A stretch of 64,000 nt of DNA from an uncultured Gemmatimonadaceae bacterium (GCA_963740355.1 CAVUDW010000003.1:1056001-1120000), one strand, 5' to 3'; shown: positions 27,536 to 56,019, counted from the stretch's first letter. Made by a program: numbers and translations. Notes: generated by a model not told the origin, from the sequence alone.

Positions 27536-28729
<1,194 letters not shown>

Positions 28730-28768: not shown

Positions 28769-30889
<2,121 letters not shown>

Positions 30890-30939
30890 GCGCGGAAACT
30901 CTCAGATGAGGCTGGAAGGCCAGTTGAGTCCAACAAAAA

Positions 30940-30992
30940 ACCGAATGGATCCAGGCACCCCGTTGGGGCCGATATCCATTCGCTGCCGCCGG
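30940..30992 (-). terminator. intrinsic terminator-like hairpin in the fusA 5' leader
   Basis: Minus strand CGAATGGAT...ATCCATTCG stem with inner CCCC/GGGG pairing followed by GTTTTTTGTT, about 50 nt before the fusA ATG. Confidence 0.65.
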
Positions 30993-31111
30993 GTACACGC
31001 GGACTGCGTGGGGACCCAAGGCGCGCCGCCGAAGCGACGTCTCATTTGTCGATACCGCGGCAGCCATACGAAAAGGCGCCGACAACACCGTTCTTGCGAG
31101 ACAGATCGCGG

Positions 31112-31139
31112 AAATTAGTGGCGACTGCCCCCAAGTCAA
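31112..31139 (-). promoter_or_regulatory. putative sigma70 promoter for fusA-tuf-S10
   Basis: TTGACT-N16-TAATTT on the minus strand. Confidence 0.55.
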
Positions 31140-31174
31140 TGCCCGACAGTCACATGGACCGCGTGCATGGGCCC

Positions 31175-32395
31175 CTACCCGCCGAGGACGCGTCCCAAGT
31201 GGCGACGCCACCGGCGGAAGCTCCGGCTGGCCCCCTCCGACCCGACAGATCCGGAGGCCGACGCGGCTCCCGCTCCTCCGGCGTCTCCAGCATCTCCCGC
31301 ATCAACGGCACCGGCTCGGCCCAGTGCCCAAGGCCAGCCGGACACCGCGTCGCCGAGTCCGTGCATCGCCTGCCGCCACCAATACCGAGACCACGCAACG
31401 GACGGGCTCGCTGCTGGAGAATGGAAGGCACGAAGCACCCATTCGCGCTCGGTCATGCCGGTCAACCAGCCGTTTCGACCGCGGAGTGCCACGATGGCAG
31501 ACTCGTCTACAGCCAGGCCGGCCAGGCGGCTCGCCGTCCATAGCCCCCAGCCGACGGGGAGCCCAGCCCCAATCGACTGCGCGGCCGCCACGACCTCGCG
31601 CCATTCTTTTCCGGCACCAAGCGCTGCCGAGCTCAGCCGATGGGTGTCGTGCAGGTACTGCCAACTGCCGACCTCGCCTTCGTGATTCCATGCCCAATGC
31701 ACTGAGGCGTGCACCAGGTGCCAGGCGGGGGGCAGCACCCTGACCCGGCGCTCGCCCCATGCGACATCCACACCCCGCGCCACCCAGGTCGCGGCCGGCT
31801 CGTCGGCAAATGGATGCCGCGGCGGAAAGAGGCTGCGATGCAGCTCGAGTCGGATACCGCCGCGCCACAGCAGCGGGGCGTCATGGTGATGGTCAGCGTA
31901 CGAGCTCTCACTGCCGCTTTCCCGCCACCCCGCCCGCCGGAGCGCCTCACGTGCCGCGACGTGCTGCTCAGGTTTCACCAGCAGATCGAGGTCGCCCATG
32001 CTCCGGAGCATGAAGTCATCCCGGCTCTGCATCGCCAGCGCCGCCCCCTTGAGCCAGAGCGCCGACACCCCGGCCCCGAGCAGGGCATCGACCGCGGCAC
32101 CCGCCGCTTCAGACAACTCCGCGCTGCGGAACGCGGCCACCCGGAAGATGCCCTGCATGGCATGGTGCACGTCATCCGGCACCGAGCCCACCGGCGCCGC
32201 ACGCAACAGTCGGAACACCTGCGCCTCGGCCCGTTCGAACGACGTCAGCGACACCAACGTCGGCCAGTGCACATCACTCCACGGGAGCTGTGCAGCCACT
32301 GACGCACCTCCATCGGGCATCGCGGCTGCCACCAGCACGCGCGCAGAGGGCGATAGCAGCGCGGGGGCCGTGCGTGGAGTCAGTGGCGCGAGCAT
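31175..32395 (-). CDS. nucleotidyltransferase family protein (NTP_transf_5-like), RiPP-cluster associated
   Basis: LWLKGAAL...RSMGDLDLLV...LELHRSLF signature. Confidence 0.8.
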   Translation of the reverse strand: MLAPLTPRTAPALLSPSARVLVAAAMPDGGASVAAQLPWSDVHWPTLVSLTSFERAEAQVFRLLRAAPVGSVPDDVHHAMQGIFRVAAFRSAELSEAAGAAVDALLGAGVSALWLKGAALAMQSRDDFMLRSMGDLDLLVKPEQHVAAREALRRAGWRESGSESSYADHHHDAPLLWRGGIRLELHRSLFPPRHPFADEPAATWVARGVDVAWGERRVRVLPPAWHLVHASVHWAWNHEGEVGSWQYLHDTHRLSSAALGAGKEWREVVAAAQSIGAGLPVGWGLWTASRLAGLAVDESAIVALRGRNGWLTGMTEREWVLRAFHSPAASPSVAWSRYWWRQAMHGLGDAVSGWPWALGRAGAVDAGDAGDAGGAGAASASGSVGSEGASRSFRRWRRHLGRVLGG

Positions 32396-32401
32396 CAGGC
32401 G

Positions 32402-33205
32402 TCAGTACTGCGTGAGTGTGCCGGCACGGCGCGCGTGCTGCAGCGCCAGATGGAAGCAGGCGCCGCCAAGCACGAGGCCCGCCAGCGAAAACAGCGACAG
32501 CTGCAGCAGGTCAGGCAACACCGCCGACAGCGACACATCCTTCAACAGCAACTGCCGCGCGGCGCGCAAGGCGGGCGTCATCGGCACGAAGCTCGCGAAT
32601 GGCGCAAACGCGGGCGGCAGGACGGTGACCGGGAAATACACGGTGCCGAGCAATGTCGATGCGGTGAGTACCGCCTGCGGAATGAAGAGCGATGATCGCA
32701 CCGCCAGCACGACGGCGCCGGCGATCAGCCCAATGCCCAGATACGCCGCGCCGAGCAGGCACATGATCACCACGAATTCCATCATGCGCGGCCATGCGAT
32801 GGTGGATGTCGCCCAGATCCATGCGGTCACCAGCAACACCAGTGATCGTAACGCGACCCACCCGAAACCGTACGCAGACAAGCCACCGATCATCGACGGC
32901 CACCGAATCGGGGTGGTGAGCAGCTGCTCGAGCGTGCCGGAAGTGATGTAGCTGTTGATCAACGACGGAATCGCCGACACCGCTTCGGCAATCACGAACG
33001 ACGCCACCGACCCGACGATCAGGTACGTGAAGTATTCCGACGACTCGGCCGCGATCGCCTTGGCGGCCAGCGGCTGCAGGGCACCCGCGATGAAATACAC
33101 CGGGATGACGGCGATCAGCACCGACAACAAGCTCACGAGGGTGCGCGTGCGGTACGTGACCATGCTCAGCGTGTACGCGCGCGCCACCGCAAGCAGTCTA
33201 CGCAT
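32402..33205 (-). CDS. ABC-2 type transporter permease
   Basis: About 6 TM segments, GTLEQLLTTP, GTVYFPV..LP; overlaps ATPase stop. Confidence 0.85.
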   Translation of the reverse strand: MRRLLAVARAYTLSMVTYRTRTLVSLLSVLIAVIPVYFIAGALQPLAAKAIAAESSEYFTYLIVGSVASFVIAEAVSAIPSLINSYITSGTLEQLLTTPIRWPSMIGGLSAYGFGWVALRSLVLLVTAWIWATSTIAWPRMMEFVVIMCLLGAAYLGIGLIAGAVVLAVRSSLFIPQAVLTASTLLGTVYFPVTVLPPAFAPFASFVPMTPALRAARQLLLKDVSLSAVLPDLLQLSLFSLAGLVLGGACFHLALQHARRAGTLTQY

Positions 33206-34223
33206 GGCGGACTCCCCCCGCGGGCATCGCGCTCACACCGACGGATTCCAGCAGATCCGCCAGCGTCAGCGCGAGCGGCGCAAACTCCGCCACGCGAACG
33301 CCAGCGCGCACCAGTGCCTCGACCACGACAGGCGCGTGCGCGGCATCCGGGAGCGTTGCCTCGAGCAGGACGAAGCCATCCAGCGGCGGCGTGATCACGT
33401 CGACGGGAAGGTGGAGTAACACGCGTGCGCGCGCTTCATGAGCGGCTTCGACACGCACACGGACCCGCGCGCCACCGACCCTGGAGGCCAGTTGCTGCAA
33501 CGAGTCGGTAGCCACCACTCGCCCTCGCACCATCAACGCAGCGCGATCACACAACTGCATTGCTTCTTCCGTGTTGTGTGTGGCCAGCACGATGGTGGCG
33601 CCGAGTTGCGTGCAGAGCACGTCCCGGATGAACCGGCGAAGCTCACGCGCCGTGATCGGATCGAGGCTGCGCGTCGGTTCATCGAGGATGAGAATCGGCG
33701 GACGTGTGACCAGCGCGCGCGCAATCAACGTCCGCTGGCGCATCCCGGATGAAAAGCTGCCCACCTGCTGACGACCCACGTGCGACAGCCCGACGAGTTC
33801 CAGCGCACTGGCGACGGCAGTGTCGCGCGCCTCGCCGCGGAGCCCGTAAAGCGAGGCGAAGAGCCGAACATTCTCGGCGGCACTGATGCGCCAGAACAAC
33901 GCCCGTTCATCCGCCGGCACAACCGCGAGGCGCGTGCGAACCGCCGCGGGATCGGCGAGTGCATCGACACCATCCACCATCACGCTGCCGCGCTCTGGAA
34001 GCAGCACCGTCGAGAGGATCTTCAGCAGCGTCGTCTTCCCCGCGCCGTTGGCGCCGACGAGCCCGAAGATTTCGCCACGCTGCACGGTGAGACTGACGGC
34101 ATCGAGCACCGCGCGTTGCTGTGTGCCAGGTGCGTGCCGAAGGCGACGGAGCAGTCCGCGGTCGGCACGGAAGAACTTCGACACATCGCGAAGCGCGATC
34201 GCCGGATCGGCACCCTCGGTCAT
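33198..34223 (-). CDS. ABC transporter ATP-binding protein
   Basis: GANGAGKTT Walker A, FSSGMRQR signature, ILDEPT Walker B; start MTEGAD by ATGA overlap with kinase stop. Confidence 0.92.
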   Translation of the reverse strand: MTEGADPAIALRDVSKFFRADRGLLRRLRHAPGTQQRAVLDAVSLTVQRGEIFGLVGANGAGKTTLLKILSTVLLPERGSVMVDGVDALADPAAVRTRLAVVPADERALFWRISAAENVRLFASLYGLRGEARDTAVASALELVGLSHVGRQQVGSFSSGMRQRTLIARALVTRPPILILDEPTRSLDPITARELRRFIRDVLCTQLGATIVLATHNTEEAMQLCDRAALMVRGRVVATDSLQQLASRVGGARVRVRVEAAHEARARVLLHLPVDVITPPLDGFVLLEATLPDAAHAPVVVEALVRAGVRVAEFAPLALTLADLLESVGVSAMPAGGVRHA

Positions 34224-35203
34224 GCTGGCACGCTGTCGTTCGCCGGTGCGTGACCATGCCACTGCAGCAACATGTCGATCACTGCACCGAGCCGAGACAG
34301 GTCGCGTGGCACAGCAAGATCGAACACCGCGGTGGCCTGTGCGATGTCGATGCAGCGCGTGAGCGCATCACCGGCAGCATCGGCGCCAAGGAGTTCCGTG
34401 ATCTTTCCATTCGAGAGTAACGCAAGCGCTGCGGCGCGCGTTGTACGAGGCGCACGCGCGACGTCCGCATCGGGCGACACTGGCGAGAGCACGTAGACGG
34501 CAGCCAGCGGAAGTGCGTCCGTGGCCACGTCGGCAACCACGCGCACTTTCCCCCAGTCATCGACAGTGCTCGACGCAACACCGACGGCTCGTGCGGTTTC
34601 GGCGCGCAATCGAAGCGGCAGTCCAGTCGGCGTCACTGTGACGCCGTGCGCACTCTGTCGCAGCACGACGACATCGTCGGCGACGAGGGCGCATCCGGCC
34701 TGCAGGCACGCAGTGGCGAGCGTGGACTTGCCCGTGCCACGTGGAGCGACGAATGCCACAACACCATCACCCATCACAACCGCGCTGGCGTGCATGCACC
34801 AGTCGCCGTCGCGGTGCAGTGCGTACGGCAACACCACACCGATCAGGTCAAGCGCGACCGCACTGCGGTCCACTCCCGAGGGTGCGAGGTGCGCAATCCG
34901 CCGACCGTCGTTCGAAAGCGTGAAGCGCCCGGTGTCAGTGACGAGGATCTCCGCACCGCCGACGCCTGTCGCAAGCGTCACATCGATGCCGTTCGAATAG
35001 GTGTGTCGCCCGATGATGGTTGCGGCCGGGTCGTGCTCGATGGCTCCCACATCCGACGGCGTCGTACACAGCTCCCAGAACGGGAACTGCCCATCACCGG
35101 GAGCGGCGACAGGCAGGCCAGGAAGTGGGCGATCGGTGGCGAGCACTCTGCCAAACACACGAACCCGCCCCGGCGCGAGATGCGCAGCTGGAGCGGGCTG
35201 CAT
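34220..35203 (-). CDS. HPr kinase-like RiPP kinase
   Basis: MHASAV...APRGTGKST...LVADDVVVL motifs; start re-placed at MQPAPA, 4 nt after the precursor stop. Confidence 0.8.
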   Translation of the reverse strand: MQPAPAAHLAPGRVRVFGRVLATDRPLPGLPVAAPGDGQFPFWELCTTPSDVGAIEHDPAATIIGRHTYSNGIDVTLATGVGGAEILVTDTGRFTLSNDGRRIAHLAPSGVDRSAVALDLIGVVLPYALHRDGDWCMHASAVVMGDGVVAFVAPRGTGKSTLATACLQAGCALVADDVVVLRQSAHGVTVTPTGLPLRLRAETARAVGVASSTVDDWGKVRVVADVATDALPLAAVYVLSPVSPDADVARAPRTTRAAALALLSNGKITELLGADAAGDALTRCIDIAQATAVFDLAVPRDLSRLGAVIDMLLQWHGHAPANDSVPA

Positions 35204-35207
35204 CACA

Positions 35208-35378
35208 TCAGGAACGCGTTCCGCCGCCTGGTGGCGTCGTCTCACCCGGAATGCAGTCACAGGAGGCGACGGAGCCATTGATGACATTCGAATTCAGCGC
35301 AAATGCCCCGAGGTTCAGCGACACCTGGGTCAGCTCGCGAAACGTGCCATAGCGCTCGAGGCGCGGCCGCTCGTACAT
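35208..35378 (-). CDS. lasso-type RiPP precursor peptide (56 aa)
   Basis: MYERPRLERYGTFRELTQ|VSLNLGAFALNSNVINGSVASCDCIPGETTPPGGGTRS; YxxPxL and GxxxxxTx leader; GAGAGG RBS. Confidence 0.85.
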   Translation of the reverse strand: MYERPRLERYGTFRELTQVSLNLGAFALNSNVINGSVASCDCIPGETTPPGGGTRS

Positions 35379-35471
35379 GGAATGCCTCTCAGTCATCTGG
35401 CAAAAAGTGTCGGATGCGCGCCACAGAGACAAGGGCTCTGTGGCATATCTCCACCGCTGCGACGCCCTAAG

Positions 35472-35912
35472 TCAGCGCAGCGTCACACCTTGGAGCGAGG
35501 AAAACCCTCCCCGCAGTGCTTCAGGCTCGGCAATTGGTGTGCCGTCCTGCTCCACCCAGGCGTGGGCCTCGAAGCCCGACGGACCTCGCCGGACCCCGAT
35601 GCGCACCACGGCCCTTGGCAAGCCGTGCTGGGTCACCAGTTCGCGGAGCGCGCTGGCCCGCACGAGGCAGGCCGAGTCACCGGGAAGCCAGCGGAGGGCC
35701 CGATCGACCGCCGCGCCCCAGCGCTCTGCGTGGCGGCGGTCCGCCGGCGACAGTGCCGACTCTCGTCTGGACTCAACAGACTCGGAGACATCATCGGCGG
35801 TGCGTTCAACGAGGGTTCCGACCGGGCGACCCGCCACGAGGCGGCGGGCCCGAACCACGGCCACTGCCGCCAGGCCGACATCGAATGCGGCTCGGGCCTT
35901 CCGCACCAGCAC
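35472..35912 (-). CDS. lasso peptide B2-type leader peptidase (transglutaminase-like)
   Basis: SACLVRASAL...VRIGV...FEAHAWVE (Cys-His catalytic motifs). Confidence 0.88.
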   Translation of the reverse strand: MLVRKARAAFDVGLAAVAVVRARRLVAGRPVGTLVERTADDVSESVESRRESALSPADRRHAERWGAAVDRALRWLPGDSACLVRASALRELVTQHGLPRAVVRIGVRRGPSGFEAHAWVEQDGTPIAEPEALRGGFSSLQGVTLR

Positions 35913-35917
35913 GCTGG

Positions 35918-36202
35918 TCAGCCCAGCGTTGCAGCGGTGTCCACGAGCAGCCCTTCGATCGACAGGTCCGCCAGCAACTCGCGGACGTGGCAGACTACGT
36001 CGGTCGCGCCTGCGTCAGGCCAGCGCTCGCGAACGGCGGCGGCCAGCGCCTCCTCGGACGACGCGCCGCTGGCCAAGGCCTGCCAGATCACGGTGCCGGT
36101 TTCATTCAGACCGAAATACACCTCGGTCAGCGGATGAAAGAGCACGCTGCCGTCGGGCAGTGTGCGCGTGACCACATCGGGGTGCGGAACGGGAAGCGAC
36201 AT
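35918..36202 (-). CDS. PqqD-family RiPP recognition element (lasso B1-type)
   Basis: DGSVLFHP..EVYFGLNETGTVIWQAL...VRELLADLSIEGLL. Confidence 0.88.
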   Translation of the reverse strand: MSLPVPHPDVVTRTLPDGSVLFHPLTEVYFGLNETGTVIWQALASGASSEEALAAAVRERWPDAGATDVVCHVRELLADLSIEGLLVDTAATLG

Positions 36203-36389
36203 CGAGACGGAAAAGGGAATCGGCATCCGGAAGTGAGACGCGCGGGATGCATTCGGGAAACGCACAAAGCGCTCCATCGCGGCAGGGGGTCGCGCACTGC
36301 GACCACCGACCGCGCGCCCTGATACAGACCCCTTCACCTCACGTTCCGTTAAGCAACGAACTCAGCCGAAACAACGTGCCCGCTCTCGT

Positions 36390-37727
36390 TCAGCGTCCAG
36401 GTGCAGGAGCCGATGCAACGCCGCTGACCAGTTTCCCTTCCTTCATCACCATCCGCACACGCTCGATCGCCGCGATCTCACGCGTCGGATCGCCATCGAC
36501 GGCCACGAGGTCGGCCAACATGCCCGGTGCCACGGTGCCGATCCGGTCGCCCATGTCGAGCACCTTGGCGGCAGCAGAGGTGGCGGAGACCAGCGCCTGT
36601 GTCGGTGTGAGGCCGTACTCCACCATCAGGATGGGTTCCCGCGCATTGGTGCCGTGCGTGAACACACCGACGTCACTGCCGTTCGCAATCGTGACGCCGG
36701 CGTCGATCGCCATCTTCACGCTCGCCCGCTTGGCGGTGATGCGCGCGGGTTCCGCACCGGTGCCCTTCTTCCAGCCACCGTACTGCGAGACGGCATCTCC
36801 AGCGGCGACCGTCGGCACCAGCACGACACCACGTTCCTTCATCAGGCGAAAGACTTCCGGCGTGCCATCGTCGCCATGGTCGATGGTTTTCACGCCCGCG
36901 AGAATCGCGCGCCGCATGCCTTCCGGTGTCGTCGAGTGGGCGACGACGTGCCGCCCGCTCGACTCAGCGATTTCAACCACCAGGTTCAATTCGGCCTGCG
37001 TGAAGGCCGGGCGCGCACTGCCATTCGCGCCCCAGCGATAGTCCGCGTAGATCTTGATCCAGTCCGCACCACGGCGGATCTGGTCGCGCACCACACGCGA
37101 CAGTTCTTCCGGCCCGGCAGCCTCCTCGGCGCCTTGCGGCACATCGACTTCCGGTGCGAAGCCACCCGGTCCGTAACTGCCGCGCATCACGATGGCGCGC
37201 GTGACGACGACGAGGCGTGGCCCTTCGATGATGCCCTGCTCGACCGCCTTCTTGAGCCCCACGTCCGCGTCAGCCGCGCCTTCAGTACCGAGGTCGCGCA
37301 AGGTGGTGAATCCTGCGCGCAGTGTGCGCTGCATGCTGACGGTCGCGCGGGCGACGCGAAGTCCGAGTGGCTCCTTGAGCACCTGATCATTCCACGTCGC
37401 TTCGTTGTACGGGTGCAGCAGCACATGCGAGTGGAGGTCGATCATGCCCGGCATCAACGTCATGCCAGGCAGGTCGATGACCGTCGCATCGCTTGGTGCC
37501 TTCACGCTTGCCGGTGAACCCACCGCCGTGATGCGGCCATTCTGCACCAACACCACCACGCCGGACTGCGGAGCCTGGCCCGTGCCATCGAAGACACGCG
37601 CCGGCTTGAGCAGGTAGCTGACCGATACGGCGGCGACGGGGGCTGCCTGTGCTGCGACCAGTGACGGCACGAGTGCTGCGACTGCGGACACACATCGGAG
37701 AACACGTGCGAAGGGCATGAGCATCAT
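36390..37727 (-). CDS. secreted metal-dependent amidohydrolase (prolidase-like group)
   Basis: [35 protein letters not shown] motifs; signal peptide. Confidence 0.88.
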
Positions 37728-39817
37728 CGTGAGCAGAGTGAGGGGCGTGCGGCGCTCGACGCGGGCGAAGTGGCAGCGGGTGATGCCGGTGCCGCAATCG
37801 ATGATGCATCGCGCGGCCAGACGTTGTCGGATGGGTCTCGATCGGGAAAACGACAGCCCGGATCAAAGAGCACCTGCGTGATGCGACGATTGCCGAAGTT
37901 GAGCACTGCGTCGAAGGTGCGCTTGCCACCGAACCAGACATCGACCGGCCAGGTGACGATGGCCGTCACGCTGTCCTGCATGACGGCGTTCGGCATCGGC
38001 TTGATCGCTGGGCCGGTGGCATCGAATCGCACGCGCAGCACGACCGGTGATGGCATCTGTCCATCCTGTCGCACAGTGACGGTGGTGCGCGATCCTTTCA
38101 CTGCCAGGTTCGCGATCGAACCGTCGACACGTTCGGTGGTGAAGAGCCAGGAATACCAGAACCACCCGAGATCACGATTGAGGGCCTTGTTCATGAAGAA
38201 CATGTAGTCCCACGGCGACGGATGCTTGAACATCCAGGCGGTCGCCCATTCACGCTGCGCGCGCCGTACTGCCGAATCGCCGACCACACCACCGAGCATC
38301 GACAGCATCAACGGCGTCTTGCCATAGGTGGTGAAGCTGTACGAGGGGCCGGCGTAGTTCGCGTTCCACATCATTGGCGGCTCGCTCTCACTGCCGCTGG
38401 TGAGGCCGTACGACTGTCCCAGGCGATCGAGATTCGGCGACTGCTTCGTGTTGTCGGCCGCCGAGAGGATGTTCATGTACTGGTTGAATCCTTCATCCAT
38501 CCAGCCGTACCAGGTCTCGTTGTTGCTCACCACCATCGGCCACCACTGATGCCCGGTTTCGTGATCGGCGGCGCCCTGATTGGAATTGATCACCATCGGG
38601 TATTCCATGCCGGCACTGGGCCCGTCCTGCAGCGTCAGTTGCGGGAACTGGTACGGGAACCAGAGTGCAGAGTAGAACTCGAGCGCATGGCGCGTGATGC
38701 GACCCGCATTGGCGAACAGGGCTTCCCGTCCCGGCAGGTAGACCATGTGCACCGGCACCGGACCCTTGCCAGGTATGGTGGCGCGTGTTGCCTGCCAGAC
38801 GAACTTCTTCGCCGTGGCCCATGCAAAGTCATTGACGTTGTCGGCCACGAGGTGCCACACCAGTCGATCACCAATCGCCGTGGCCTGCCCCGGGCCAATT
38901 TCAGTCGGACCGACGATGGTGACGATGCTGTCGCTCTCCAGCACGCGCGCGAGACTGGCACGTGCAGCGGCCGTAAGCACCTGATCCGGATTCTGCAGCA
39001 CGCCGGTGCCGCTGACGATCCAGCCTCCGGGCACATCGATCTTCACATCGAAGCGGCCGAAGTTGTTGTAGAACTCTGACGGGCCCAGATACAGCTCCGG
39101 ATCCCAGCCACGCAGGTCGTCATAGACGGCGATGCGCGGGAACCACTGTGTGGGCTGAAAGAGTGAATCAGCCCAGCGTTGTGTCATGCGATGGCCAGAC
39201 CCTGGCCCGCCCGGCAGCGCGTGGTTCCACTCGATGTCGATGGTGGCACTGCCGTTCGGTGCAATGGCGGATGCGAGGAAGAGTCGCGCGAGCGTGGACT
39301 TCAGGTTCACCACGGCGGCTTCGGTGGCGACGGCGCCGCGTGAGGGCGGCGGCGCGTCGAACCGCACCGGCTTGCCATTGACGCGAATGGCCGTGACCAC
39401 CATGCCGTCGGTCAGCTGCGCCGGCACCCACGGCAATGCGCGTGGATTGGTCCCGATGAAATGGTTGGCATCCAGCCGCAGTGCGATCTGCGAGAGCGAG
39501 TCGGGGCTGGCGTTGTGAAGCGTGATCGTCTCGCGCCCACTCAGACGCTGGGCGGGCACATCGAGTCGCGCCTGGATGACATAGTCGGTGCGCAGTTGCC
39601 AGTATTTCGCGCCGGGCTTGCCGGTGGAGTCGCGGGTCCCGGCACGAAACGCGGCGCGGATCGCGTCGGTCATCGGGATGTCGCGACGGATGGCGCGGTC
39701 GGGCCAGGCTGACGGAGCGGACTGGGCAAGCGCTGTGGACGCTGCCAATACGAGGATGGCGGGGAGTCGAAGCACGGGCGAACAGGCCCGGATGTGGCGT
39801 ACGATTTGGCAAGGCAT
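37724..39817 (-). CDS. secreted M1-family metallo-aminopeptidase
   Basis: [13 protein letters not shown] and downstream WMDEG; start position uncertain. Confidence 0.85.
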
Positions 39818-39863
39818 GCGGAATCGTCGACCACAACGACCGCAGGCGCAAGAGCGGCGGGTA

Positions 39864-41282
39864 CTATTCGCCGAGCGCGAGCACCGACGCCACGGCGGCG
39901 AGCGTGCGCCGCACATCCTCCGCATTCGTGCGCCAGTTCACGACGCTGACACGCATGGCCCGCTGTCCCTGCCACGTGGTGCCGCTGAAAAAGGCCTCGC
40001 CGGTGGCATTCACGCCCTCGATCACGGCATCGGTACGCCGGTCGTGATCGGCGCTCGTTGCCCCCAGGCGCGGGTCGAGGAACCGCACCAGACCCTGATT
40101 CAGGTTCGGTTCCCAGAGCACCTCGGCGCCTGGCAACGCGCCGATGCCGGTGACGATGGAGTGGCAGTGTGCACAGTCGCGATCGATCAGGTCGGCGAGG
40201 CCGTTGCGGCCCATTTCCCGAAGGGCCGCAAAGACGGCGAACCCACGCGCACGACGTGACCACTCCGGATTCCAGTCGATCTGGCTCCGTACATCGGTGT
40301 TCTCGGAGATGTACGAGGCCGAGAGTGTCATGGAAGCGCGATGCGCCTCGCGGTCACGCACGACGGCAAAGCCGCAGTCGTACGGTACGTTGAGCCACTT
40401 GTGTGCATCGGTGGCCCAGCTGTCCGCGAGCTCGACGCCGCGCAGCAGTTCTCGCTTGGTCGCGCTGGCACGCGCCATCAGGCCGAACGCACCGTCGATG
40501 TGCACCCAGGCGCCAGCAGCATGCGCGATCGGGATGAGCGTCGCAAAATCATCGATGGCACCGATGTTGAGGTCCGCGGCATCGAGCACCACGATCGTCG
40601 GTCCAGCGTGTGCGGCCAGCGCTGCGGCGAGCGTCCTGGCTTCGACGACGCCTATGTGGTTGGTGGGCAGCGCCACCAACGCATTGCTGCCGATACCGAG
40701 GAAGCGAATCGCGCGATCGATCGAGCCGTGGCGATGTTCACTGGTCAGGACACGAATCGCTGGCGCACCAAACAATCCATCGCCGTGCACATCCCAGCCC
40801 GCGCGTGAAAGGACTGCATGACGGGCGGCGGCAAGCGCGGTGAAATGCGCCAGTTGGCAGCCAGTGGTGAACGCGAATGATGCATCGCGCGGCAGGTCGA
40901 GCACGTCGAGCAACCATGCGCCCGCTACTTCCTCGACGACGGCCGCCGCCGGCGCCGTGGAATAGATGGCGGCATTCTGATCCCACGCGCACGTCAACCA
41001 ATCCGCCGCCAGCGCCGATGGCAGCGCCCCGCCGATGACCCAGGCGAAAAATCGTCCGCTGACCGCGGCATGCAATCCGCCATCGGTCATCGCGACGAGG
41101 TCGTCGATCACCTGCTCCGCGCTGACGCCATCCGCTTCGAGTGCGATGTGCATCCTGCGCCGCAACTCGGCGGCGGAAGCGGTGGCGCCGACCGAGCGGG
41201 TATCGATGCCGTCGAGCCACGCGAGCGCAGCAGCGTGCGCGCGCTCGAGGGCCGCGTGTGCGGTGGGGTGGGGCGTGGTCAT
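39864..41282 (-). CDS. PLP-dependent (group II) amino-acid decarboxylase
   Basis: WVHIDGAFG, DSWATDAHKWLNVPYDCG (PLP lysine). Confidence 0.88.
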   Translation of the reverse strand: MTTPHPTAHAALERAHAAALAWLDGIDTRSVGATASAAELRRRMHIALEADGVSAEQVIDDLVAMTDGGLHAAVSGRFFAWVIGGALPSALAADWLTCAWDQNAAIYSTAPAAAVVEEVAGAWLLDVLDLPRDASFAFTTGCQLAHFTALAAARHAVLSRAGWDVHGDGLFGAPAIRVLTSEHRHGSIDRAIRFLGIGSNALVALPTNHIGVVEARTLAAALAAHAGPTIVVLDAADLNIGAIDDFATLIPIAHAAGAWVHIDGAFGLMARASATKRELLRGVELADSWATDAHKWLNVPYDCGFAVVRDREAHRASMTLSASYISENTDVRSQIDWNPEWSRRARGFAVFAALREMGRNGLADLIDRDCAHCHSIVTGIGALPGAEVLWEPNLNQGLVRFLDPRLGATSADHDRRTDAVIEGVNATGEAFFSGTTWQGQRAMRVSVVNWRTNAEDVRRTLAAVASVLALGE

Positions 41283-41646: not shown

Positions 41647-42113
41647 CTACCAGCGGTAGTGCGCGAAGGCCTTGTTGGCCTCGGCCATGCGGTGCGTGTC
41701 TTCCTTCTTCTTGATCGCGTTGCCTTCGCCCTTGCTGGCGGCGATGACTTCCGCAGCCAGGCGCTCCGGCATCGACTTCTCGTTGCGATCGCGCGAATAG
41801 CTGATCAACCAACGCATCGCGAGCGCCGTGCGGCGATCGGGACGGACTTCGACCGGCACCTGATACGTGGCACCGCCGACGCGGCGGCTCTTCACTTCCA
41901 CGACCGGCTTCAGGTTCGTCAGGGCCTGCTTGAAGATGTTCACGCCCGGCTGGCTGGTGCGTGCTTCCACCAGGTCCATCGCGGCGTAGAAGATCTTCTC
42001 TGACGTGGCCTTGCGACCCTGCAGCATCAGGTTGTTGATGAACTTGCTGACAGTCTGGCTGTCGTAGCGGGCATCAGGCAGGATGATGCGCTTTACGGAC
42101 TTTTTGCGGCGGC

Positions 42114-42117
<4 letters not shown>
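41647..42117 (-). CDS. rpsG: 30S ribosomal protein S7
   Basis: [30 protein letters not shown]. Confidence 0.98.
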
Positions 42118-42635: not shown

Positions 42636-42712
42636 CCGCAGACTTTCGCGCGTACCCAATCAGGGGGATCAATTCGGGTCCCCGACGAGTCAACCGCGCA
42701 CCCCTACGAACG

Positions 42713-43159
42713 ATGTTTCGCACACTCACCACCGCCCTGATGCTGCTCGCCTGCACGGCCAGGACCGCTGCGGCCCAAGCCGATGACCAGACGACCGAAG
42801 CGCTGCTGGGCGGCTTTCGCACGCCTTCCGGCAACATCTATTGTCAGGCCTTCTCGATCGGCAAAGCCCGTCGGACCGAGCTGCGGTGTGACGTCCTCAA
42901 GAACGACGCGCCGATGGTGCGGCGGCCGGCCGACTGCGAGCAGGACTACGGGAATGCGTTCAACCTGACGGATGGTGGCCGCGCGACCCGACTCTGTGTC
43001 GGCGACACGGTGGCAGATCCGGAGCTACCGGTGCTCGCATACGGCCAGACTTGGAGCGCCAAACAGATCCGGTGTGAATTGACGACACTCCGTCTGCGTT
43101 GCAGCAACCCTGCCGGGCGATACTTCGCGCTTTCGCGGCGCGCGCAGCGCCTGGGCTGA
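42713..43159 (+). CDS. secreted Cys-rich hypothetical protein (DUF6636-like)
   Basis: Signal peptide; F.TPSGNI.C...C.GDT...L.YG..W....C......L.C.N pattern. Confidence 0.7.
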   Translation: MFRTLTTALMLLACTARTAAAQADDQTTEALLGGFRTPSGNIYCQAFSIGKARRTELRCDVLKNDAPMVRRPADCEQDYGNAFNLTDGGRATRLCVGDTVADPELPVLAYGQTWSAKQIRCELTTLRLRCSNPAGRYFALSRRAQRLG

Positions 43160-43178
43160 CAAGGCCGACTCGACGCGC

Positions 43179-43796
43179 CTACGTCGTACTGTGGGTACCG
43201 GAGATCAGGCGCTCGACGGCCCAGCGCGCACTCAGCATCGCTTCCCGACCGCTGCCACAGGGCGCTTGCGATACGGCACCCTCGTACAGCGACACGACCG
43301 CCCGCGCCAACTGCGGCGGGGCGTCGGGGACTGCACCGGCAACCAGTGAGTCGATCAGCGCGGCAAACCAGGCGCGCTGATCCCGAAACACTGGGCTCGC
43401 AGGGTGCGATGCATCCGGAAGTTCGGCTGCTGCAATCTGAAAGTGACAGCCCCTGAATCCCGGCCCTTCCGCCGAAGCCGCCGCCATGTCGAAGAGGGCC
43501 AGCAGCCGAGCACGCGGATCCGGCCCGGCACGTTCGATCGTCTGGCTGACCAGTGTTCTGGTCTGCGTCGCCCGTGCGTCGAGGTAGGCCGCGACCAACT
43601 CGTCCTTCCCCGAGAAGTGCGCGTACAGCGACGCCTTCGCAGCCCCGGACTCGGCCAGAATGCGATCGATGCCGACAGCGCGAATGCCCTCGGCGTAGAA
43701 GAGGCGATCGGCGGTTTCGAGGAGGCGAGAACGGACGTCCGGAGCGTCCTTCAGCCCAGGCGGTCGTCCACGGCGCGGTTTGGTCATTTCTGCCAT
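43179..43796 (-). CDS. TetR/AcrR family transcriptional regulator
   Basis: LFYAEGIRAVGIDRILAESGAAKASLYAHFSGKDEL HTH; RGC motif. Confidence 0.92.
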   Translation of the reverse strand: MAEMTKPRRGRPPGLKDAPDVRSRLLETADRLFYAEGIRAVGIDRILAESGAAKASLYAHFSGKDELVAAYLDARATQTRTLVSQTIERAGPDPRARLLALFDMAAASAEGPGFRGCHFQIAAAELPDASHPASPVFRDQRAWFAALIDSLVAGAVPDAPPQLARAVVSLYEGAVSQAPCGSGREAMLSARWAVERLISGTHSTT

Positions 43797-43808
43797 GCTT
43801 GACAATAC

Positions 43809-43858
43809 AGACAGACCGGTCTATTGTCTAGCCCAGAAGCAGACAGACCTGTCTGTCT
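43809..43858. promoter_or_regulatory. two palindromic TetR-type operators
   Basis: AGACAGACCGGTCTATTG (43809-43826) and AGACAGAC-CT-GTCTGTCT (43841-43858) between divergent tetR and SDR. Confidence 0.7.
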
Positions 43859-43885
43859 AAAAAGCCATCCCCTGCAGCCCAACTC

Positions 43886-44629
43886 ATGTCACAGAAGATC
43901 GAAGGATCCGTCGCACTCGTCACCGGTGCAAATCGCGGAATCGGCCGAGCCATCGTGGATGCGCTCGTCGCCGCCGGCGCCGCAAAAGTTTACGCGGGCG
44001 CTCGCACACTCGCATCACTTGAGCCCCTGAAGCGCCAGCATGGAGACATCATCGTTCCCGTCGAGCTCGATGTGGTGAAGGCTGATCAGATTGCCGCGTC
44101 CGCAGCGCTTGCGACGGATGTGACCATCGTCGTGAACAACGCCGGTATTGCGCTCGAGTACGGCACGCAGTTCGTGGACATCAATCTCGATCTGGCACGC
44201 GAGCAGCTCGAAGTGAATGCCTTCGGCACCCTCAGTGTGACACAGGCCTTCGCGCCGCATCTGAAGCGGAATGGTGGTGGCTCGCTGGTCAACATTATCT
44301 CAGCCGTCGCCTTCGCGAACTTCCCCGGCGTCGTTTCCTACAGCGTGTCGAAGGCTGCAATGCACTCGATCACGCAGGCGTCGCGCTCCGCGTTGGCGGG
44401 GCAAGGCACGGTTGTGATTGGCGTGTACCCAGGGCCCGTCGACACCGACATGGCGAGTGAAGTCCAGATGGACAAGGTGCCGGCGAAGGGTGTCGCCGAG
44501 CGGATCCTGCGTGGAATCGAGCTGGGCGAGGAGGAAGTCTTTCCCGATCCAGTGTCCGCGCAGCTCGGCGGCGTCTATGCGTCCGATCCGAAGGGTGTGG
44601 AGCGCGCGGTGGCGGCAATGGTGGTGTAA
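43886..44629 (+). CDS. short-chain dehydrogenase/reductase
   Basis: TGANRGIG, NNAG, YSVSK, PGPVDTDM. Confidence 0.93.
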   Translation: MSQKIEGSVALVTGANRGIGRAIVDALVAAGAAKVYAGARTLASLEPLKRQHGDIIVPVELDVVKADQIAASAALATDVTIVVNNAGIALEYGTQFVDINLDLAREQLEVNAFGTLSVTQAFAPHLKRNGGGSLVNIISAVAFANFPGVVSYSVSKAAMHSITQASRSALAGQGTVVIGVYPGPVDTDMASEVQMDKVPAKGVAERILRGIELGEEEVFPDPVSAQLGGVYASDPKGVERAVAAMVV

Positions 44630-44635
44630 CGCCGC

Positions 44636-44847
44636 GATCAAGGGGTCAGAGATCTTGAACGGCGAATTTTCGGCCTAAGTCACTGGGGCTCAGAGGGTTG
44701 CGTGCCGATCAAGGGGTCAGAGATCTTGATCGGGAGAGCTTGATCGATCACGATCAAGATCTCTGACCCCTTGATCGGAGGCCAACTGCATGCGCTCCAA
44801 CACATTACCCCGCTAAAACGCCGATCAAGATCTCTGACCCCTTGAAA
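44636..44847. repeat. REP-like cluster 2 (two forward, two inverted 25-bp units)
   Basis: 44636-44660 and 44707-44731 forward; 44752-44776 and 44823-44847 inverted; between convergent genes. Confidence 0.88.
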
Positions 44848-44874
44848 ACGTGGCCCCCTCGCTCGGCCGCCGAG

Positions 44875-45504
44875 TCAGACCTGCGGCAACAGCATGTCGG
44901 CCGCGGCCACCGAATCGATCGGCTCCGACACCGGCTTCAGCATCCCCGTTGCGACGTCATACACGACGCCCTGCAACAGGACCTTCTGCCCCTTCTTCCA
45001 CGCGTCCAGCACGATCGGCGTGCGCGCAAGAATGCCCATCTGCTGCAGCACATTCAGCTCCGACAGGCGGCTGAGGCGCGCCGTCTCATCCACGATGCGA
45101 TCCAGCTCCTGGCGATGCCAGCGAATCACGGTCCGGATGTCGCTGAGCCAATGGTCGATCACACCGTGCGCGCCGTCGTTCATGGCGGCCTTCAGCGCGC
45201 CACAATTGGTGTGACCACAGATCATCACGTGCTCCACCTTCAAGACATCGATCGCGTACTGCAGCACCGAGATCAGGTTCATGTCCGTCTCCCACACCTG
45301 ATTCCCGATGTTCCGGTGCACGAACATCTCGCCCGGCAACACGCCCGTCAGCGTCTCCGCTGGAACACGACTGTCGGAACAGCCGATCCAGAGGAAGTGC
45401 GGCTCCTGAGAGGAGTCTCGCTCCGAGAAGAAGTCCGGGTCCTCCGTGACGATACGGGCGGCCCAGCTCCGGTTGTTCTCGAGTATTCGTGCGAAATTCA
45501 GCAT
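44875..45504 (-). CDS. can: beta-class carbonic anhydrase
   Basis: WIGCSDSRVP, FVHRNIGN, CGHTNCG. Confidence 0.93.
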   Translation of the reverse strand: MLNFARILENNRSWAARIVTEDPDFFSERDSSQEPHFLWIGCSDSRVPAETLTGVLPGEMFVHRNIGNQVWETDMNLISVLQYAIDVLKVEHVMICGHTNCGALKAAMNDGAHGVIDHWLSDIRTVIRWHRQELDRIVDETARLSRLSELNVLQQMGILARTPIVLDAWKKGQKVLLQGVVYDVATGMLKPVSEPIDSVAAADMLLPQV

Positions 45505-45706
45505 GACGGTGAGCGAAAAGAGTCGAGAGGTGGGCGCGCTGAAATCGGGCAGCCGGCGAACAGGGCGAGATTCCAGCGAATTCGCTCGATTCCCCTACAC
45601 AGAATCTTAAAAAGGCTCAAGGAATCCAGCACGTGAGCCGAATCTCACAATCAAGCGATTGCTGAGCACGCCGGCAGGTCAGGCACCACTGGGAGCACGA
45701 CCAGAA

Positions 45707-47974
45707 GTGAACGATACCGAGAGCACCCTGCCGCGACCATCGAATACCAGAAGCCTGAGCCGCAGTTATTCGCTCGGACTTGGACTGATCGCGGCCCTTG
45801 CCCTCGGAACTTCGGCGCTGATTCTCGCGGTCGCCAACCGGAGTGCGCCGACCGAGCTGCGCGAGCGAATCGTCGCTCGACAGCTGGCGGAAGCCGACCA
45901 GCTGATCGCGGCCGGACGTACCATCGCGGCCACGTCGCCGTCCGACCCACTGGCCACGGCCGAGTCGCGCGCGCAAGCGGGTGCGGCGCTGACGGCCCAT
46001 GGCGTCGCATTGGTGAAGGCAATCGACGACGCCAACGTCAGCATCGCGGCAGATCACGCCCAGACCGTCACGCAACTGAAGCGGATCGCCATCGGATTCT
46101 GCGTCACCCTCCTCGGCGTCCTGATCTTCGAGGTGATGGTCGTCTTCCGCCCGGCGACGAAGGCGATCGGCGCACTGTTGCTGGATCAGGAAGCCGTCAA
46201 GAACGAGCTGTACGCCAAGGCCGAAGAGATGTACCAGAGCAACGTGCAGCAGGAGATCCAGAACGATACGCTCCATGCGCAGCAGCAGACGTTGCTCGAA
46301 CAACAGGAAGAACTTCTCGCGCAGCAGTCGACGCTGATCGAGCAGCGTGACCATCTTGAGCAGCGCACCAACGAGTTGTCGCGATTGACGGCGATTCTCG
46401 ACGCGACACCCGACGCCGTCGCCGTCTTCTCGCTCACGGGCGAGGTGCTCTATACGAATGCCGCGGCCGAACGGCACCTCGAGGATGTGCGTCGCCGCGA
46501 TTGGACGCACGCAGCGCACCTGCTGACGACAGAGTCGGTGCGCCAACTCCGTGACGTCGCCTTCCCGCGCGCCATTCGTCGTGGCCTCTGGCAGGGCGAG
46601 GCGACACTCCGCACCCGCGGCGGGCCGCAGCGAACCGTGATCCAGACTCTCATTGCCCATCGCGGCCCGGATGGGCGCGTGTCCACCGTGTCGGTGATGC
46701 TGCAGGATGTGACGGAATCGCGCCTTGTGGCACGAGAACTCGAGACACTCTCGCTGGTTGCACGCCAGAGTGACCACGCGATCGTGACGACTGATGCCCG
46801 CGGTGCGATCACGTGGGTGAACCCCGCCTGGGAGCGACTCACTGGCTACACGCTGACCGAGGTCTTCAGCCGTCGCCCCGGCGAATTGCTGCAAGGCACA
46901 CACACGAACAGCGAGACGGTGACGCAGATGCGGCACGCGCTGCGCGCCGGCAATGGGTGGAGCGGTGAAATCCTGAACTATCGGCGTGACGGGGCACCGT
47001 ACTGGATCGAGACGAGCATCACACCATCCCTGAACGCCGAGGGTACGATTTCAGGATTCGTCGGCCTCTCGCGAGACATCACCGCGCGCCGCAATGCCGA
47101 TCGCGAGCGACAGCAACTGGCGGCCGCTGTCGCGGTGACGGCGGACGGTATCGCAATCACCGGCGTGAGCGGCGCGCTGGAGTTCGTGAATCACGCCTTC
47201 GCACGAATGCATGGCGTGAAGCCGGCCGACCTGCTGCAGACACCATGGGCCTCGCTGTATGGCGACGACGAATCACGTCGACTGGTACGCGACGCGATTC
47301 CGGAAGTGACGCAAGTCGGTTTCTGGCACGGCGAGGCGACCGGACGGGCGAAGGATGGTACGCAGTATCCGCAGGAACTGTCGTTGACGTTGTTGCCCCA
47401 CGGCGGCCTGGTTGCGGTCGCACGCGACATCTCCGAGCGGAAGGCGGCCGAGGAGCGATTGCTGCACCTCTCGGTGCGTGATGAGCTGACGTCGCTCTAC
47501 AATCGACGCGGGTTCCTCGAGCAAGCGGATTCGGTGTTGAAGCTGTCAGCCCGACAGGGGGTGCCGTGTGCCCTGCTCTACGGCGATCTCGATTCGTTCA
47601 AGTCAGTCAATGACGGCTATGGGCACGACGCCGGCGACGCCGCCTTGAAAACAGTCTCACGCATCCTGTCGTCGACGTTTCGTGAGACCGACCTCGTCGC
47701 CAGGCTTGGCGGGGATGAGTTCACGATCCTCGCCATTGACGTCCGCCCAGAGGATGTGTCGATCATCCTCGCGCGGATCGATGACGCCGCGGCCGAGAGC
47801 AATTGCGCACGCGCGAACGACCCATCGCAGGCGTGGCGGCTTGGTATCAGCATTGGCGCGGCATACTTCAATCCTGACGCACCGGTCGACGTCGAGACGT
47901 TGCTGCGTACCGCAGACGAGGCGCAATACCTGGAGAAGCGGCTGCGCAAATCGCGGGCGGCGCAGGCCGCGTAG
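45707..47974 (+). CDS. membrane-anchored multi-PAS diguanylate cyclase
   Basis: Two TM segments, Gln-rich coiled coil, three PAS domains, DELTSLYNRR, RETD I-site and RLGGDEF; start uncertain (45659 or 45707). Confidence 0.9.
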   Translation: MNDTESTLPRPSNTRSLSRSYSLGLGLIAALALGTSALILAVANRSAPTELRERIVARQLAEADQLIAAGRTIAATSPSDPLATAESRAQAGAALTAHGVALVKAIDDANVSIAADHAQTVTQLKRIAIGFCVTLLGVLIFEVMVVFRPATKAIGALLLDQEAVKNELYAKAEEMYQSNVQQEIQNDTLHAQQQTLLEQQEELLAQQSTLIEQRDHLEQRTNELSRLTAILDATPDAVAVFSLTGEVLYTNAAAERHLEDVRRRDWTHAAHLLTTESVRQLRDVAFPRAIRRGLWQGEATLRTRGGPQRTVIQTLIAHRGPDGRVSTVSVMLQDVTESRLVARELETLSLVARQSDHAIVTTDARGAITWVNPAWERLTGYTLTEVFSRRPGELLQGTHTNSETVTQMRHALRAGNGWSGEILNYRRDGAPYWIETSITPSLNAEGTISGFVGLSRDITARRNADRERQQLAAAVAVTADGIAITGVSGALEFVNHAFARMHGVKPADLLQTPWASLYGDDESRRLVRDAIPEVTQVGFWHGEATGRAKDGTQYPQELSLTLLPHGGLVAVARDISERKAAEERLLHLSVRDELTSLYNRRGFLEQADSVLKLSARQGVPCALLYGDLDSFKSVNDGYGHDAGDAALKTVSRILSSTFRETDLVARLGGDEFTILAIDVRPEDVSIILARIDDAAAESNCARANDPSQAWRLGISIGAAYFNPDAPVDVETLLRTADEAQYLEKRLRKSRAAQAA

Positions 47975-47991
47975 CACGATGCCTCGGCGCC

Positions 47992-50676: not shown

Positions 50677-50888
50677 TACGCCCGAGGTGGAAGACTGAGT
50701 GCCATCCTACACAACGTCGAAGGAACCTGCCCACCTGTAAAGCGTGCTCTGGTGCAGCGCAGTTCCGGATCGTGACCAGCCAGTCGGTCGGAAAGCGATC
50801 CGAACGCCCGAAAAGGCACACGGCCGAGGCCGGGTTCGGTATCTTTCCCAGCGACCGATTCCCGGTCCGACACCCGATTTCCGATTCG

Positions 50889-52499: not shown

Positions 52500-52516
52500 C
52501 GGCGTTCTCGCGCTGA

Positions 52517-54998: not shown

Positions 54999-55130
54999 GC
55001 TGAAATGTGTATCAGGCGCGTTTTCACTGCATGGCCGCATCATCATTTCCGCTCACTTCAGCGCTCCTCTCGCCACGGTATTACTCCTTCGCCGTGACGC
55101 TCCTGTGACGGGGTCCGGTAGGCTCGTCGC

Positions 55131-55718: not shown

Positions 55719-55728
55719 GATGTGCGGC

Positions 55729-55949
55729 GATCAAGATCTCTGACCACGCCGATCAAGATCTCCGACCCCTTGATCAGAGGCTAACCCTTGCGCGGACATG
55801 ACCTTAGCCCGGGAAAACGCCGATCAAGGGGTCTGACCCCTTGATCAGAGGCTAACCCTCGCGCGGACATGACCTTAGCCATGGAAAACGCCGAGCAAGG
55901 GGTCTGACCCCTTGATCGGAGCTTAACGCCATACGGGGCAACGCTTTAC
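55729..55949. repeat. REP-like cluster 3, tandem 71-bp modules
   Basis: Partial unit 55729-55745; units at 55751, 55822, 55893; two near-identical 46-bp linkers. Confidence 0.88.
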
Positions 55950-55977
55950 GCTGCGTTTTTGCTGTACGCCCAGCGCC

Positions 55978-56019
55978 ACAAACAAAACGGCCCGGAGCAT
56001 TTCGCCCCGGGCCGTTTGT
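55978..56019 (-). terminator. intrinsic terminator after rpoC
   Basis: AAACGGCCCGG/CCGGGCCGTTT stem (55985-55995/56007-56017) with T-rich tail on the minus strand. Confidence 0.8.

Follow-up and report, generated by a model that had tools for sequence, protein, structure and literature searches.

Introduction

Lasso peptides are defined by their cyclase (C), and genome mining treats clusters without this gene as incomplete or as false positives (PMC7470986 and PMC7533575). In this work we analysed a 64,000-nucleotide (nt) stretch of DNA from an uncultured Gemmatimonadaceae bacterium (GCA_963740355.1 CAVUDW010000003.1:1056001-1120000; hereafter the window, with positions counted from its first letter), whose minus strand carries a lasso-type operon without a cyclase gene. 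This operon for a peptide that is synthesised on ribosomes and modified after translation (RiPP) encodes a discrete RiPP recognition element (RRE; B1), a leader peptidase (B2), a precursor (A), an HprK-like kinase (K), a two-gene ATP-binding cassette (ABC) exporter and a nucleotidyltransferase (NT).

Among the closest described systems is the pseudomycoidin (psm) cluster of Bacillus pseudomycoides DSM 12442, which we set beside the operon by its published description and by motif correspondence. As described in PMC6993621, psm has in common with it a precursor ending in Ser, split B1 and B2 proteins, an HprK-family kinase with an Asp-Asp (DD) pair, an uncharacterised NTP-transferase with a DxD motif and ABC export. 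The psm kinase adds one to three phosphates to the C-terminal Ser and can act on the precursor ahead of cyclisation. PsmA precursors were found phosphorylated, PsmN was required for the +162 Da hexose units on the phosphate, and mutation of PsmK D158/D159 or PsmN D134/D136 inactivated the respective enzyme (PMC6993621). The two systems differ in that psm has a macrolactam synthetase, PsmC, and an Ala1-Glu9 ring (PMC6993621), whereas for the operon studied here we found no cyclase in the genome and no acidic residue at core positions 7-9. Its core is also about twice as long (34-39 residues) and carries a CDC motif, its export system is a two-gene, DrrAB-like ABC-2 transporter, and its host belongs to the phylum Gemmatimonadota.

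Paeninodin (pade) and the polyphosphorylated proteobacterial lasso peptides also involve an HprK-type kinase, which acts on the C-terminal Ser hydroxyl of the linear precursor, not on the threaded lasso, and depends little on the rest of the peptide (PMC8498205). Unlike our operon, these clusters have their own cyclase and give threaded lassos. The first-pass annotation of the window had counted the nucleotidyltransferase among paeninodin-type features; this attribution has to be corrected, as PMC6993621 places the gene in the pseudomycoidin-type cluster and describes it as absent from paeninodin. A mirror image of our operon exists in Stanieria cyanosphaera PCC 7437, whose lasso cluster, as far as that paper describes it, keeps the cyclase and a PsmK-like kinase without B proteins (PMC6993621). 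A PqqD-like chaperone and an HprK-related kinase also occur together in the HPr-rel-A system (TIGR04352 kinase A, TIGR04353 PqqD chaperone), whose models are the best or second-best named NCBIfam matches for K and B1. We do not count the operon as a member, because the scores are 25 bits against 200 for the kinase and 28.1 bits against 35 for PqqD.

Clusters without a cyclase have been met in genome surveys. RRE-Finder found that about half of ~8,000 lasso-type discrete RREs lack a co-occurring peptidase and cyclase, and these were taken as possible false positives or uncharacterised classes (PMC7470986). In a rumen survey, 'incomplete' clusters were mostly tool artefacts (PMC7533575). Our literature search, which covered open papers and left subscription papers and supplements outside, returned no description of a conserved B1, B2 and kinase cluster without a cyclase.

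No lasso cyclase is detected in the operon or in the genome

The window corresponds to C3:1056001-1120000 of an assembly of 5.45 Mb in 5 contigs with 94.5% completeness, and its host contig is 2.58 Mb long. Reading of the open reading frames (ORFs), combined with Pfam and NCBIfam profile matches, gave seven packed genes between 31175 and 36202 in the order B1-B2-A-K-ABC-ABC-NT (Table 1). Their positions and families agree with the first-pass annotation, and so do the gaps beside B1 and B2, which it had put at under 200 nt and which measure 187 nt upstream of B1, 5 nt between B1 and B2, and 93 nt between B2 and A. Only 4 nt separate A from K and 6 nt the permease from NT, while K and the ATPase gene overlap in an ATGA and the ATPase and permease genes by 8 nt. 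In tblastn searches B1, B2, K and NT are each single-copy in the genome, and B2 is its sole PF13471 match. B1 also matches NF033530 lasso_PqqD (9.6e-11, under the cut-off), and its start at 36202 is the conserved start among orthologues in the genus, which are 73-85% identical. A sequence search of the PDB with K gave nothing better than E = 0.63 and thus retrieved no solved lasso kinase.

A six-frame PF00733 search of the whole genome returned 10 matches and none in the window, which bears out the earlier claim that no asparagine-synthetase-like ORF exists in the 64 kb. Read from the sequence, these matches are five full-length Asn-synthase genes and short PP-loop ATPase matches. All five genes start with MCG(I), and thus have the N-terminal nucleophile of glutamine-hydrolysing asparagine synthases. 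They score 363-479 bits with TIGR01536 AsnB (cut-off 267) and have AsnB or XrtA-type amidotransferase models as best matches; with the lasso-cyclase model NF033535 they stay at 270 bits or lower, against a cut-off of 525. Cyclases inside the clusters of relatives start with MSG, MTA or MSA, score too low for TIGR01536 (121-229 bits) and match the lasso-cyclase model best, though under its cut-off. When 12 Asn-synthase-like ORFs of relatives (11 cyclases and one AsnB) were used as tblastn queries against the genome, no cyclase was found. The five AsnB loci were matched, by the cyclase queries at 21-36% identity over long stretches, and the AsnB query alone added two weak places. The whole-genome search that the first-pass annotation had suggested thus yields five AsnB-type genes and no lasso cyclase in a 94.5%-complete genome. 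A Pfam scan of the other genes between rpsG and rpoC revealed no recognisable peptide macrocyclase.

Profile score alone was tried as a means of separating cyclases from AsnB and was rejected, as divergent cyclases adjacent to clusters (loci L097-L100) score about as low as AsnB paralogues. For this reason, our cyclase calls rest on the N-terminal Cys, the TIGR01536 cut-off, orthologue-level identity and adjacency. One AsnB-type gene of this genome (L004, L005; G000:C2:624353-626290) lies in two frames, as overlapping ORFs of 497 and 263 residues, which indicates a frameshift or an assembly error.

Absence of the cyclase is conserved across the genus

The genus is represented by 20 genomes counting this one. 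The kinase is present in all 20, and 18 loci were fetched; G003, with its kinase split over two contig ends, was omitted. A profile search of public genome contigs with a genus-only kinase alignment gave matches only in the genus (18 loci). As far as their contigs reach, all 18 loci have the arrangement M1 peptidase-amidohydrolase-B1-B2-A-K-ATPase-permease-NT-fusA-tuf, with no gene disruption apart from contig ends. Not one of them holds an Asn-synthase-like ORF. The spacer between B2 and A, where relatives have the cyclase gene, leaves no room at 75-93 nt for a gene of ~650 codons and therefore points to one ancestral deletion. With the cyclase of L061 as query, the best match in the 20 genomes reached at most 31% identity and 109 bits, three genomes gave no match, and no orthologue was found; the same query detected orthologues at 35-44% identity and 195-325 bits in genomes G025, G049 and G032.

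Outside the genus, 16 kinase loci were examined, of which L065 (G026, an unpublished genome) was left out of the counts and of both trees, leaving 15. A non-Cys Asn-synthase-like gene lies in 12 of the 15, typically in the order B1-B2-C-A-K-ABC-ABC-NT; in L058 the cyclase is cut by a contig end, and in the remaining two (L059 in G049, L062 in G025) there is no local cyclase and an orthologue lies on another contig. The cyclase match of G025 lies in pieces on two contigs, and its kinase match contains an in-frame TGA. The sister clusters of other Gemmatimonadaceae and related genera (L061, L063, L064, L068 and others) have orthologous families, the same gene order apart from C and the same leader motif as the window, with proteins 30-47% identical to it. 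They differ from it in the Cys-less Asn-synthase-like cyclase between B2 and A and in an Asp at core position 8 or 9 in 8 of 11 cores.

In a family-wide sample the kinase occurs in 85 of 151 genomes, and nearly every strong match, in a listing read by eye, has a cyclase within a few kb. The genome-wide kinase and family-wide tallies take in the unpublished G026, G075, G076 or G174, on which no locus-level claim rests. The exceptions were followed up in 10 further loci, with L092 left unclassed. Three of these are without a cyclase. L096, on a 2.7-kb contig of G105 (74% complete), carries B2-A-K-ATPase with a genus-like precursor. L101 (G108) reads rpsL-rpsG-B1-B2-A-K-ABC-ABC-fusA-tuf, lacking C and NT, in a genome that also has a second, cyclase-containing cluster. 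L094 (G162) reads rpsG-B1-A-K-ABC-ABC-fusA and lacks B2, C and NT. Contig ends truncate the cyclases of L093 and L095, and those of L097-L100 are divergent. Among the genomes that profile score had flagged as cyclase-free, several were dismissed: G135 and G179 have a cyclase that is cut by contig ends, and a cyclase was found in the g41 genomes G070, G134 and G181. G175, whose contig ends inside NT, was left unclassed.

Kinase trees were made with quick IQ-TREE runs in two versions, with support from the Shimodaira-Hasegawa-like approximate likelihood-ratio test (SH-aLRT) only. The genus and G105 form one clade (SH-aLRT 99), with the cyclase-free G105 as sister to the genus, and the genus falls in a clade of support 99 otherwise made up mostly of cyclase-linked kinases. 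G108 and G162 form a separate clade (support 99) nested among cyclase-linked kinases. Read in this way, the tree would need two cyclase losses, though its starred branches alone do not exclude a single one. The stem of the genus kinases is long, at 1.45 substitutions per site in the earlier tree and 0.68 plus 0.52 in the later one. These data indicate that the cyclase loss is old and genus-wide, not recent or private to one genome. The first-pass annotation had reasoned that cyclases in orthologous clusters would mean a recent deletion here; such cyclases do exist in other genera, but the deletion is not recent and is common to the whole genus and a sister lineage.

The precursor has no ring acceptor at positions 7-9

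The leader of the precursor is MYERPRLERYGTFRELTQ, with Thr at -2, and its pattern YxxPxLxxxGxxxxxTx is kept in all 18 genus precursors. We number the core on the assumption that cleavage occurs after the conserved Thr-x. The genus core then reads VSLNLGAFALNxNVxxGxxASCDC(I/L)P, followed by a variable Pro/Gly-rich stretch and RS, over 34-39 residues. Known lasso rings are confined to 7-9 residues. In the alignment no genus precursor has Asp or Glu at core positions 7-9 (0/18), and acidic residues first appear at position 23 in 17 precursors and at position 13 in the remaining one. The CDC motif is invariant, and the C-terminal Ser is present in 18/18. For the linear 38-residue core of the window we calculated a monoisotopic mass of 3674.767 Da and an isoelectric point of 4.4; its first 21 residues are hydrophobic (grand average of hydropathy 0.89).

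The same features are found well beyond our genomes. A search of 5.8 billion proteins gave 50 clusters of the precursor family, with leader and CDC nearly invariant, some under the NCBI name 'lasso RiPP family leader peptide-containing protein [Gemmatimonadaceae bacterium]'. Among the 49 with the leader motif, none has an acid at positions 7-9, all have CDC and 48 end in Ser. In contrast, relatives outside the genus have Asp at position 8 or 9 in 8 of 11 cores, which indicates that the precursor changed along with the loss of the cyclase. The cores of the cyclase-free G108 and G162 have 39 residues, no acid at 7-9 and two Cys, and end in RS.

The stretch G-x-x-A-S-C-D at residues 17-23 of the genus core looks like the L068 ring (A-G-V-T-G-S-C-D8), and from this likeness the genus core may be an old ring region displaced 16 residues from the cleavage site. 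Unusual cores also occur elsewhere in the family. L058 (G032) has one Trp/Arg-rich core without any acidic residue, beside a cyclase, and L060 (G033) has two cores with the first acid at position 15 or 29, in a cluster that also has two kinases and two B1 genes. Judging from these extra precursors, which could not form a normal ring, lasso leaders giving linear products may be more general in the family.

Purifying selection and intact catalytic motifs

We calculated median pairwise Nei-Gojobori dN/dS for each gene from 17-19 sequences including the window (Table 1). At a dS of ~0.9-1.3 for the seven cluster genes, the ratios indicate that all seven, the precursor included, are under purifying selection. 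The catalytic residues are also in place. In B2, the Cys (GDSAC) and the His (EAHAW) are present in all genus rows that reach these positions; the third triad residue, with triad columns read from the alignment, is Glu in the genus, as in the cyclase-containing L061, and Asp in most relatives. All 30 aligned kinase homologues have the GKST and the DD pair, and all 23 aligned NT homologues have the MxDxD. The kinase DD is the counterpart of the PsmK D158/D159 metal site, and the NT DxD that of PsmN D134/D136.

Table 1. Genes and other features of the operon and its surroundings, with profile matches and dN/dS.
Feature	Position in window	Strand	Description	Evidence	Median dN/dS
rpsL	~42.1-42.6 kb	-
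rpsG	41671-42114	-
M1 peptidase and amidohydrolase	36390-39925	-	two genes overlapping by 4 nt	signal-peptide-like N-termini, read by eye	0.15 (M1 peptidase); 0.13 (amidohydrolase)
B1	35918-36202	-	discrete PqqD-like RiPP recognition element, 94 aa, start MSLPVPHPD	PF05402 PqqD 5.1e-11, 43.2 bits (cut-off 23.4)	0.16
B2	35472-35912	-	transglutaminase-fold lasso leader peptidase, 146 aa, GTG start	PF13471 6.2e-22; NF033537 lasso_biosyn_B2 68.2 bits (cut-off 33)	0.25
B2-A spacer	35379-35471	-	93 nt, site of the cyclase gene in relatives	75-93 nt in 18/18 genus sequences including the window
A	35208-35378	-	precursor, 56 aa (18-aa leader, 38-aa core)	NF033521 lasso_leader_L3 over residues 2-18, 26.6 bits (cut-off 19)	0.12
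K	34220-35203	-	HprK-like P-loop kinase, 327 aa	weak PF07475 6.7e-4, TIGR04352 8.7e-6 and TIGR04355, all under cut-offs	0.28
ABC ATPase	33198-34223	-	ATP-binding subunit, DrrA-like, 341 aa from the ATG overlapping the K stop	PF00005 2.4e-32; TIGR01188 drrA 3.7e-65 (under cut-off)	0.15
ABC permease	32402-33205	-	ABC-2 type permease, 267 aa	PF01061 1.2e-8	0.16
NT	31175-32395	-	nucleotidyltransferase, 406 aa	PF14907 2.5e-35	0.28
fusA		-			0.05
tuf	27536-28729	-	second copy outside the window, identical in protein sequence

A proposed cyclase-independent pathway and its alternatives

The operon has several marks of a lasso cluster, namely the leader, the B1 recognition element and B2. Since it has neither a cyclase nor an acceptor acid at positions 7-9, we do not class it among the producers of lasso peptides. 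It also has what the phosphorylated or glycosylated lasso subtype has: a kinase with P-loop and DD, though its HprK matches lie under the cut-off, and a C-terminal Ser. The reading we lean towards, with modest confidence, is that a kinase/NT (pseudomycoidin-like) lasso operon whose ancestor lost C has been kept by selection as a cyclase-independent pathway to a linear, leader-cleaved, Ser-phosphorylated, perhaps glycosylated, exported peptide.

Our model suggests the following steps, which we infer from the conserved parts and from the described relatives. B1 would bind the precursor through the YxxPxLxxxGxxxxxTx leader, and the HprK-like kinase would phosphorylate the invariant C-terminal Ser (Ser56) of the still-linear peptide. 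The PF14907 nucleotidyltransferase would then add a further group to the phosphate, by analogy a hexose. B2, activated by B1, would cleave after Thr-Gln, and the ABC-2 transporter would export a linear peptide of 34-39 residues (38 here). The exported peptide would have a hydrophobic N-terminal half, its CDC may form a disulfide or bind metal, and neither a macrolactam nor a threaded fold would be expected. The first-pass annotation had proposed a distinct RiPP class that makes an unthreaded modified peptide. As far as sequence reaches, the data support a lasso-derived system in which leader recognition, cleavage, tailoring and export persist without a cyclase; 'distinct class' is stronger than the data, and the unthreaded, modified nature of the product is a prediction.

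Several observations weigh against this reading. Leader proteolysis and macrolactam formation 'appear coupled' in lasso biosynthesis, according to a review (PMC10885120), and a productive B1/B2 without C is for this reason not the textbook expectation. Three of the relatives' 11 cores (one of two in L058, both in L060) are acid-free at 7-9 despite a cyclase in the cluster, so that the absent acid is by itself no proof that the peptide does not become a lasso. Because dS is near saturation, the dN/dS values are approximate, and the genus sequences are kin and not independent samples. The second cyclase-free lineage looks progressively reduced, with G108 lacking NT and G162 lacking B2 and NT, and these further losses are compatible with slow decay. 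Finally, the genome is 94.5% complete, most relatives are fragmented metagenome-assembled genomes (MAGs), and an unrelated macrocyclase elsewhere in the genome would be outside the reach of Asn-synthase-type homology searches.

The reduction of that second lineage, together with the in-frame TGA in the G025 kinase, would fit a decaying relic, in which no useful peptide is made after cyclase loss and the genes persist by inertia or for the transporter. This seems quite improbable, as dN/dS is 0.12-0.28 at a dS of ~1 for all seven genes, even the 56-codon precursor, the 18 genus loci are undisrupted besides contig ends, the motifs are intact, and leader and CDC are nearly invariant in the 50 public clusters. 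We consider it just as improbable that a macrocyclic or threaded peptide is still produced, either through a cyclase elsewhere, such as one of the five AsnB-like genes, or through an unrelated macrocyclase. Such trans arrangements do exist, since G025 and G049 have no local cyclase and an orthologue on another contig; a possible relic ring motif, like the L068 ring, lies at core 17-23, and the genome is not fully complete. Yet each of the five Asn-synthase genes retains the Cys nucleophile and reaches the cut-off of the AsnB model but not that of the cyclase model. The 20 genus genomes yielded no cyclase orthologue, no acid is at 7-9 in any of the 18 genus or 49 public precursors, the Thr(-2) cleavage site is 16 residues upstream of the putative relic ring, and the scanned neighbourhood has no other cyclase-like gene. 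A cyclase encoded elsewhere, which the first-pass annotation had offered as its alternative, is thus disfavoured for the genus and real in G025 and G049.

Another explanation would have the system rewired, with the peptide exported with its leader or cut elsewhere, for example outside the cell by the neighbouring M1 peptidase or amidohydrolase, and with B1/B2 acting mainly as chaperone or scaffold for K and NT. The long kinase stem branch suggests a functional shift, the M1 peptidase and amidohydrolase genes lie directly upstream in genus loci and both products have signal-peptide-like N-termini, and G162, which has no B2, still carries B1, A, K and the transporter. We nevertheless regard this scenario as unlikely: the B2 Cys/His and the Thr(-2) site are conserved, and in the cyclase-free G108 rpsG is followed directly by B1, with no M1 peptidase or amidohydrolase. 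That the missing cyclase is an artefact of assembly or binning has a negligible probability. Although the relatives searched are mostly MAGs, many of them fragmented, B2 and A are contiguous across a spacer of 75-93 nt in 18/18 sequences from independently assembled genomes, and the window lies in a 2.58-Mb contig.

A cyclase-free derivative of a lasso cluster is kept under purifying selection throughout the sampled genus (20 genomes) and has 50 precursor clusters in public data, and its presence co-varies with loss of the ring acceptor. If the product is confirmed, the B1/B2 leader peptidase would work productively uncoupled from cyclisation, and the peptide would be a natural linear substrate for the Ser kinase and for the still-uncharacterised PF14907 transferase. 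It would also provide a mining rule, namely B1, B2 and kinase with no C and no acid at 7-9, for an overlooked RiPP group.

The cluster occupies a site in the str operon

Between 27536 and 42600 the minus strand carries rpsL, rpsG, a pyridoxal-phosphate-dependent decarboxylase gene, the M1 peptidase and amidohydrolase genes, the cluster, fusA and tuf, followed by the S10 operon. As fusA is single-copy, it is not a spare resistance copy. The slot between rpsG and fusA also holds lasso-type clusters in other genera, with a cyclase in L060 (G033), L066 and L068 and without one in G108 and G162. Such a conserved rpsG-fusA position is unusual for a secondary-metabolite cluster. More tentatively, and with slightly less than even confidence, we propose that the Gemmatimonadaceae have a cyclase-independent, lasso-descended RiPP family that arose twice at one str-operon site (rpsL-rpsG-cluster-fusA-tuf), and in which the leader, B1/B2, kinase, NT and exporter would have been repurposed to make a linear CDC peptide of 34-39 residues with a phospho(glyco)serine tail. 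If true, a module for the processing and tailoring of lasso precursors can work, and be favoured by selection, without the cyclase that defines the class.

Directly upstream of B1, the M1 peptidase gene is found in 16 and the amidohydrolase gene in 15 of the 18 genus loci (three contigs end earlier, and L051 has M1 without an amidohydrolase match), and in none of the 16 non-genus loci. Two tuf copies encode identical proteins (100% over 397 residues by tblastn), one in the window (G000:C3:1083539-1084729) and one at G000:C3:1124432-1125622, 4.4 kb past the window end. This duplicate tuf is probably why many of the MAG contigs in the genus stop ~5.6 kb from the kinase. The genes rpsL and rpoC are often adjacent. 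Here ~12 kb of unrelated genes lie between them (42700-56000), including genes for a TetR regulator, a short-chain dehydrogenase/reductase, a PAS-GGDEF protein, a PAS hybrid histidine kinase, a phosphoesterase and a beta-propeller protein, and three ORFs without a Pfam match.

Putative regulatory signals

A promoter scan of 30700-36600 gave no sigma-70-like sites, and the number of terminator-like hairpins in the same interval (3 against 3.3 expected) is uninformative. The B2-A spacer contains an element, CTTGTC..N17 (about 17 nt)..CGACACT(T/A)TTT, whose motif is kept in at least 90% of rows among the 18 genus sequences, and the spacer of the window also has an inverted repeat, GCCACAGAG..CTCTGTGGC. 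From its conservation and position, the element may serve the precursor gene as a promoter or RNA hairpin. A Shine-Dalgarno-like GAGAGG lies 7 nt before the precursor ATG, and a second conserved word, GGAGCGCTTTGTGCGTTTC, is found ~60 nt upstream of B1 in many genus loci.

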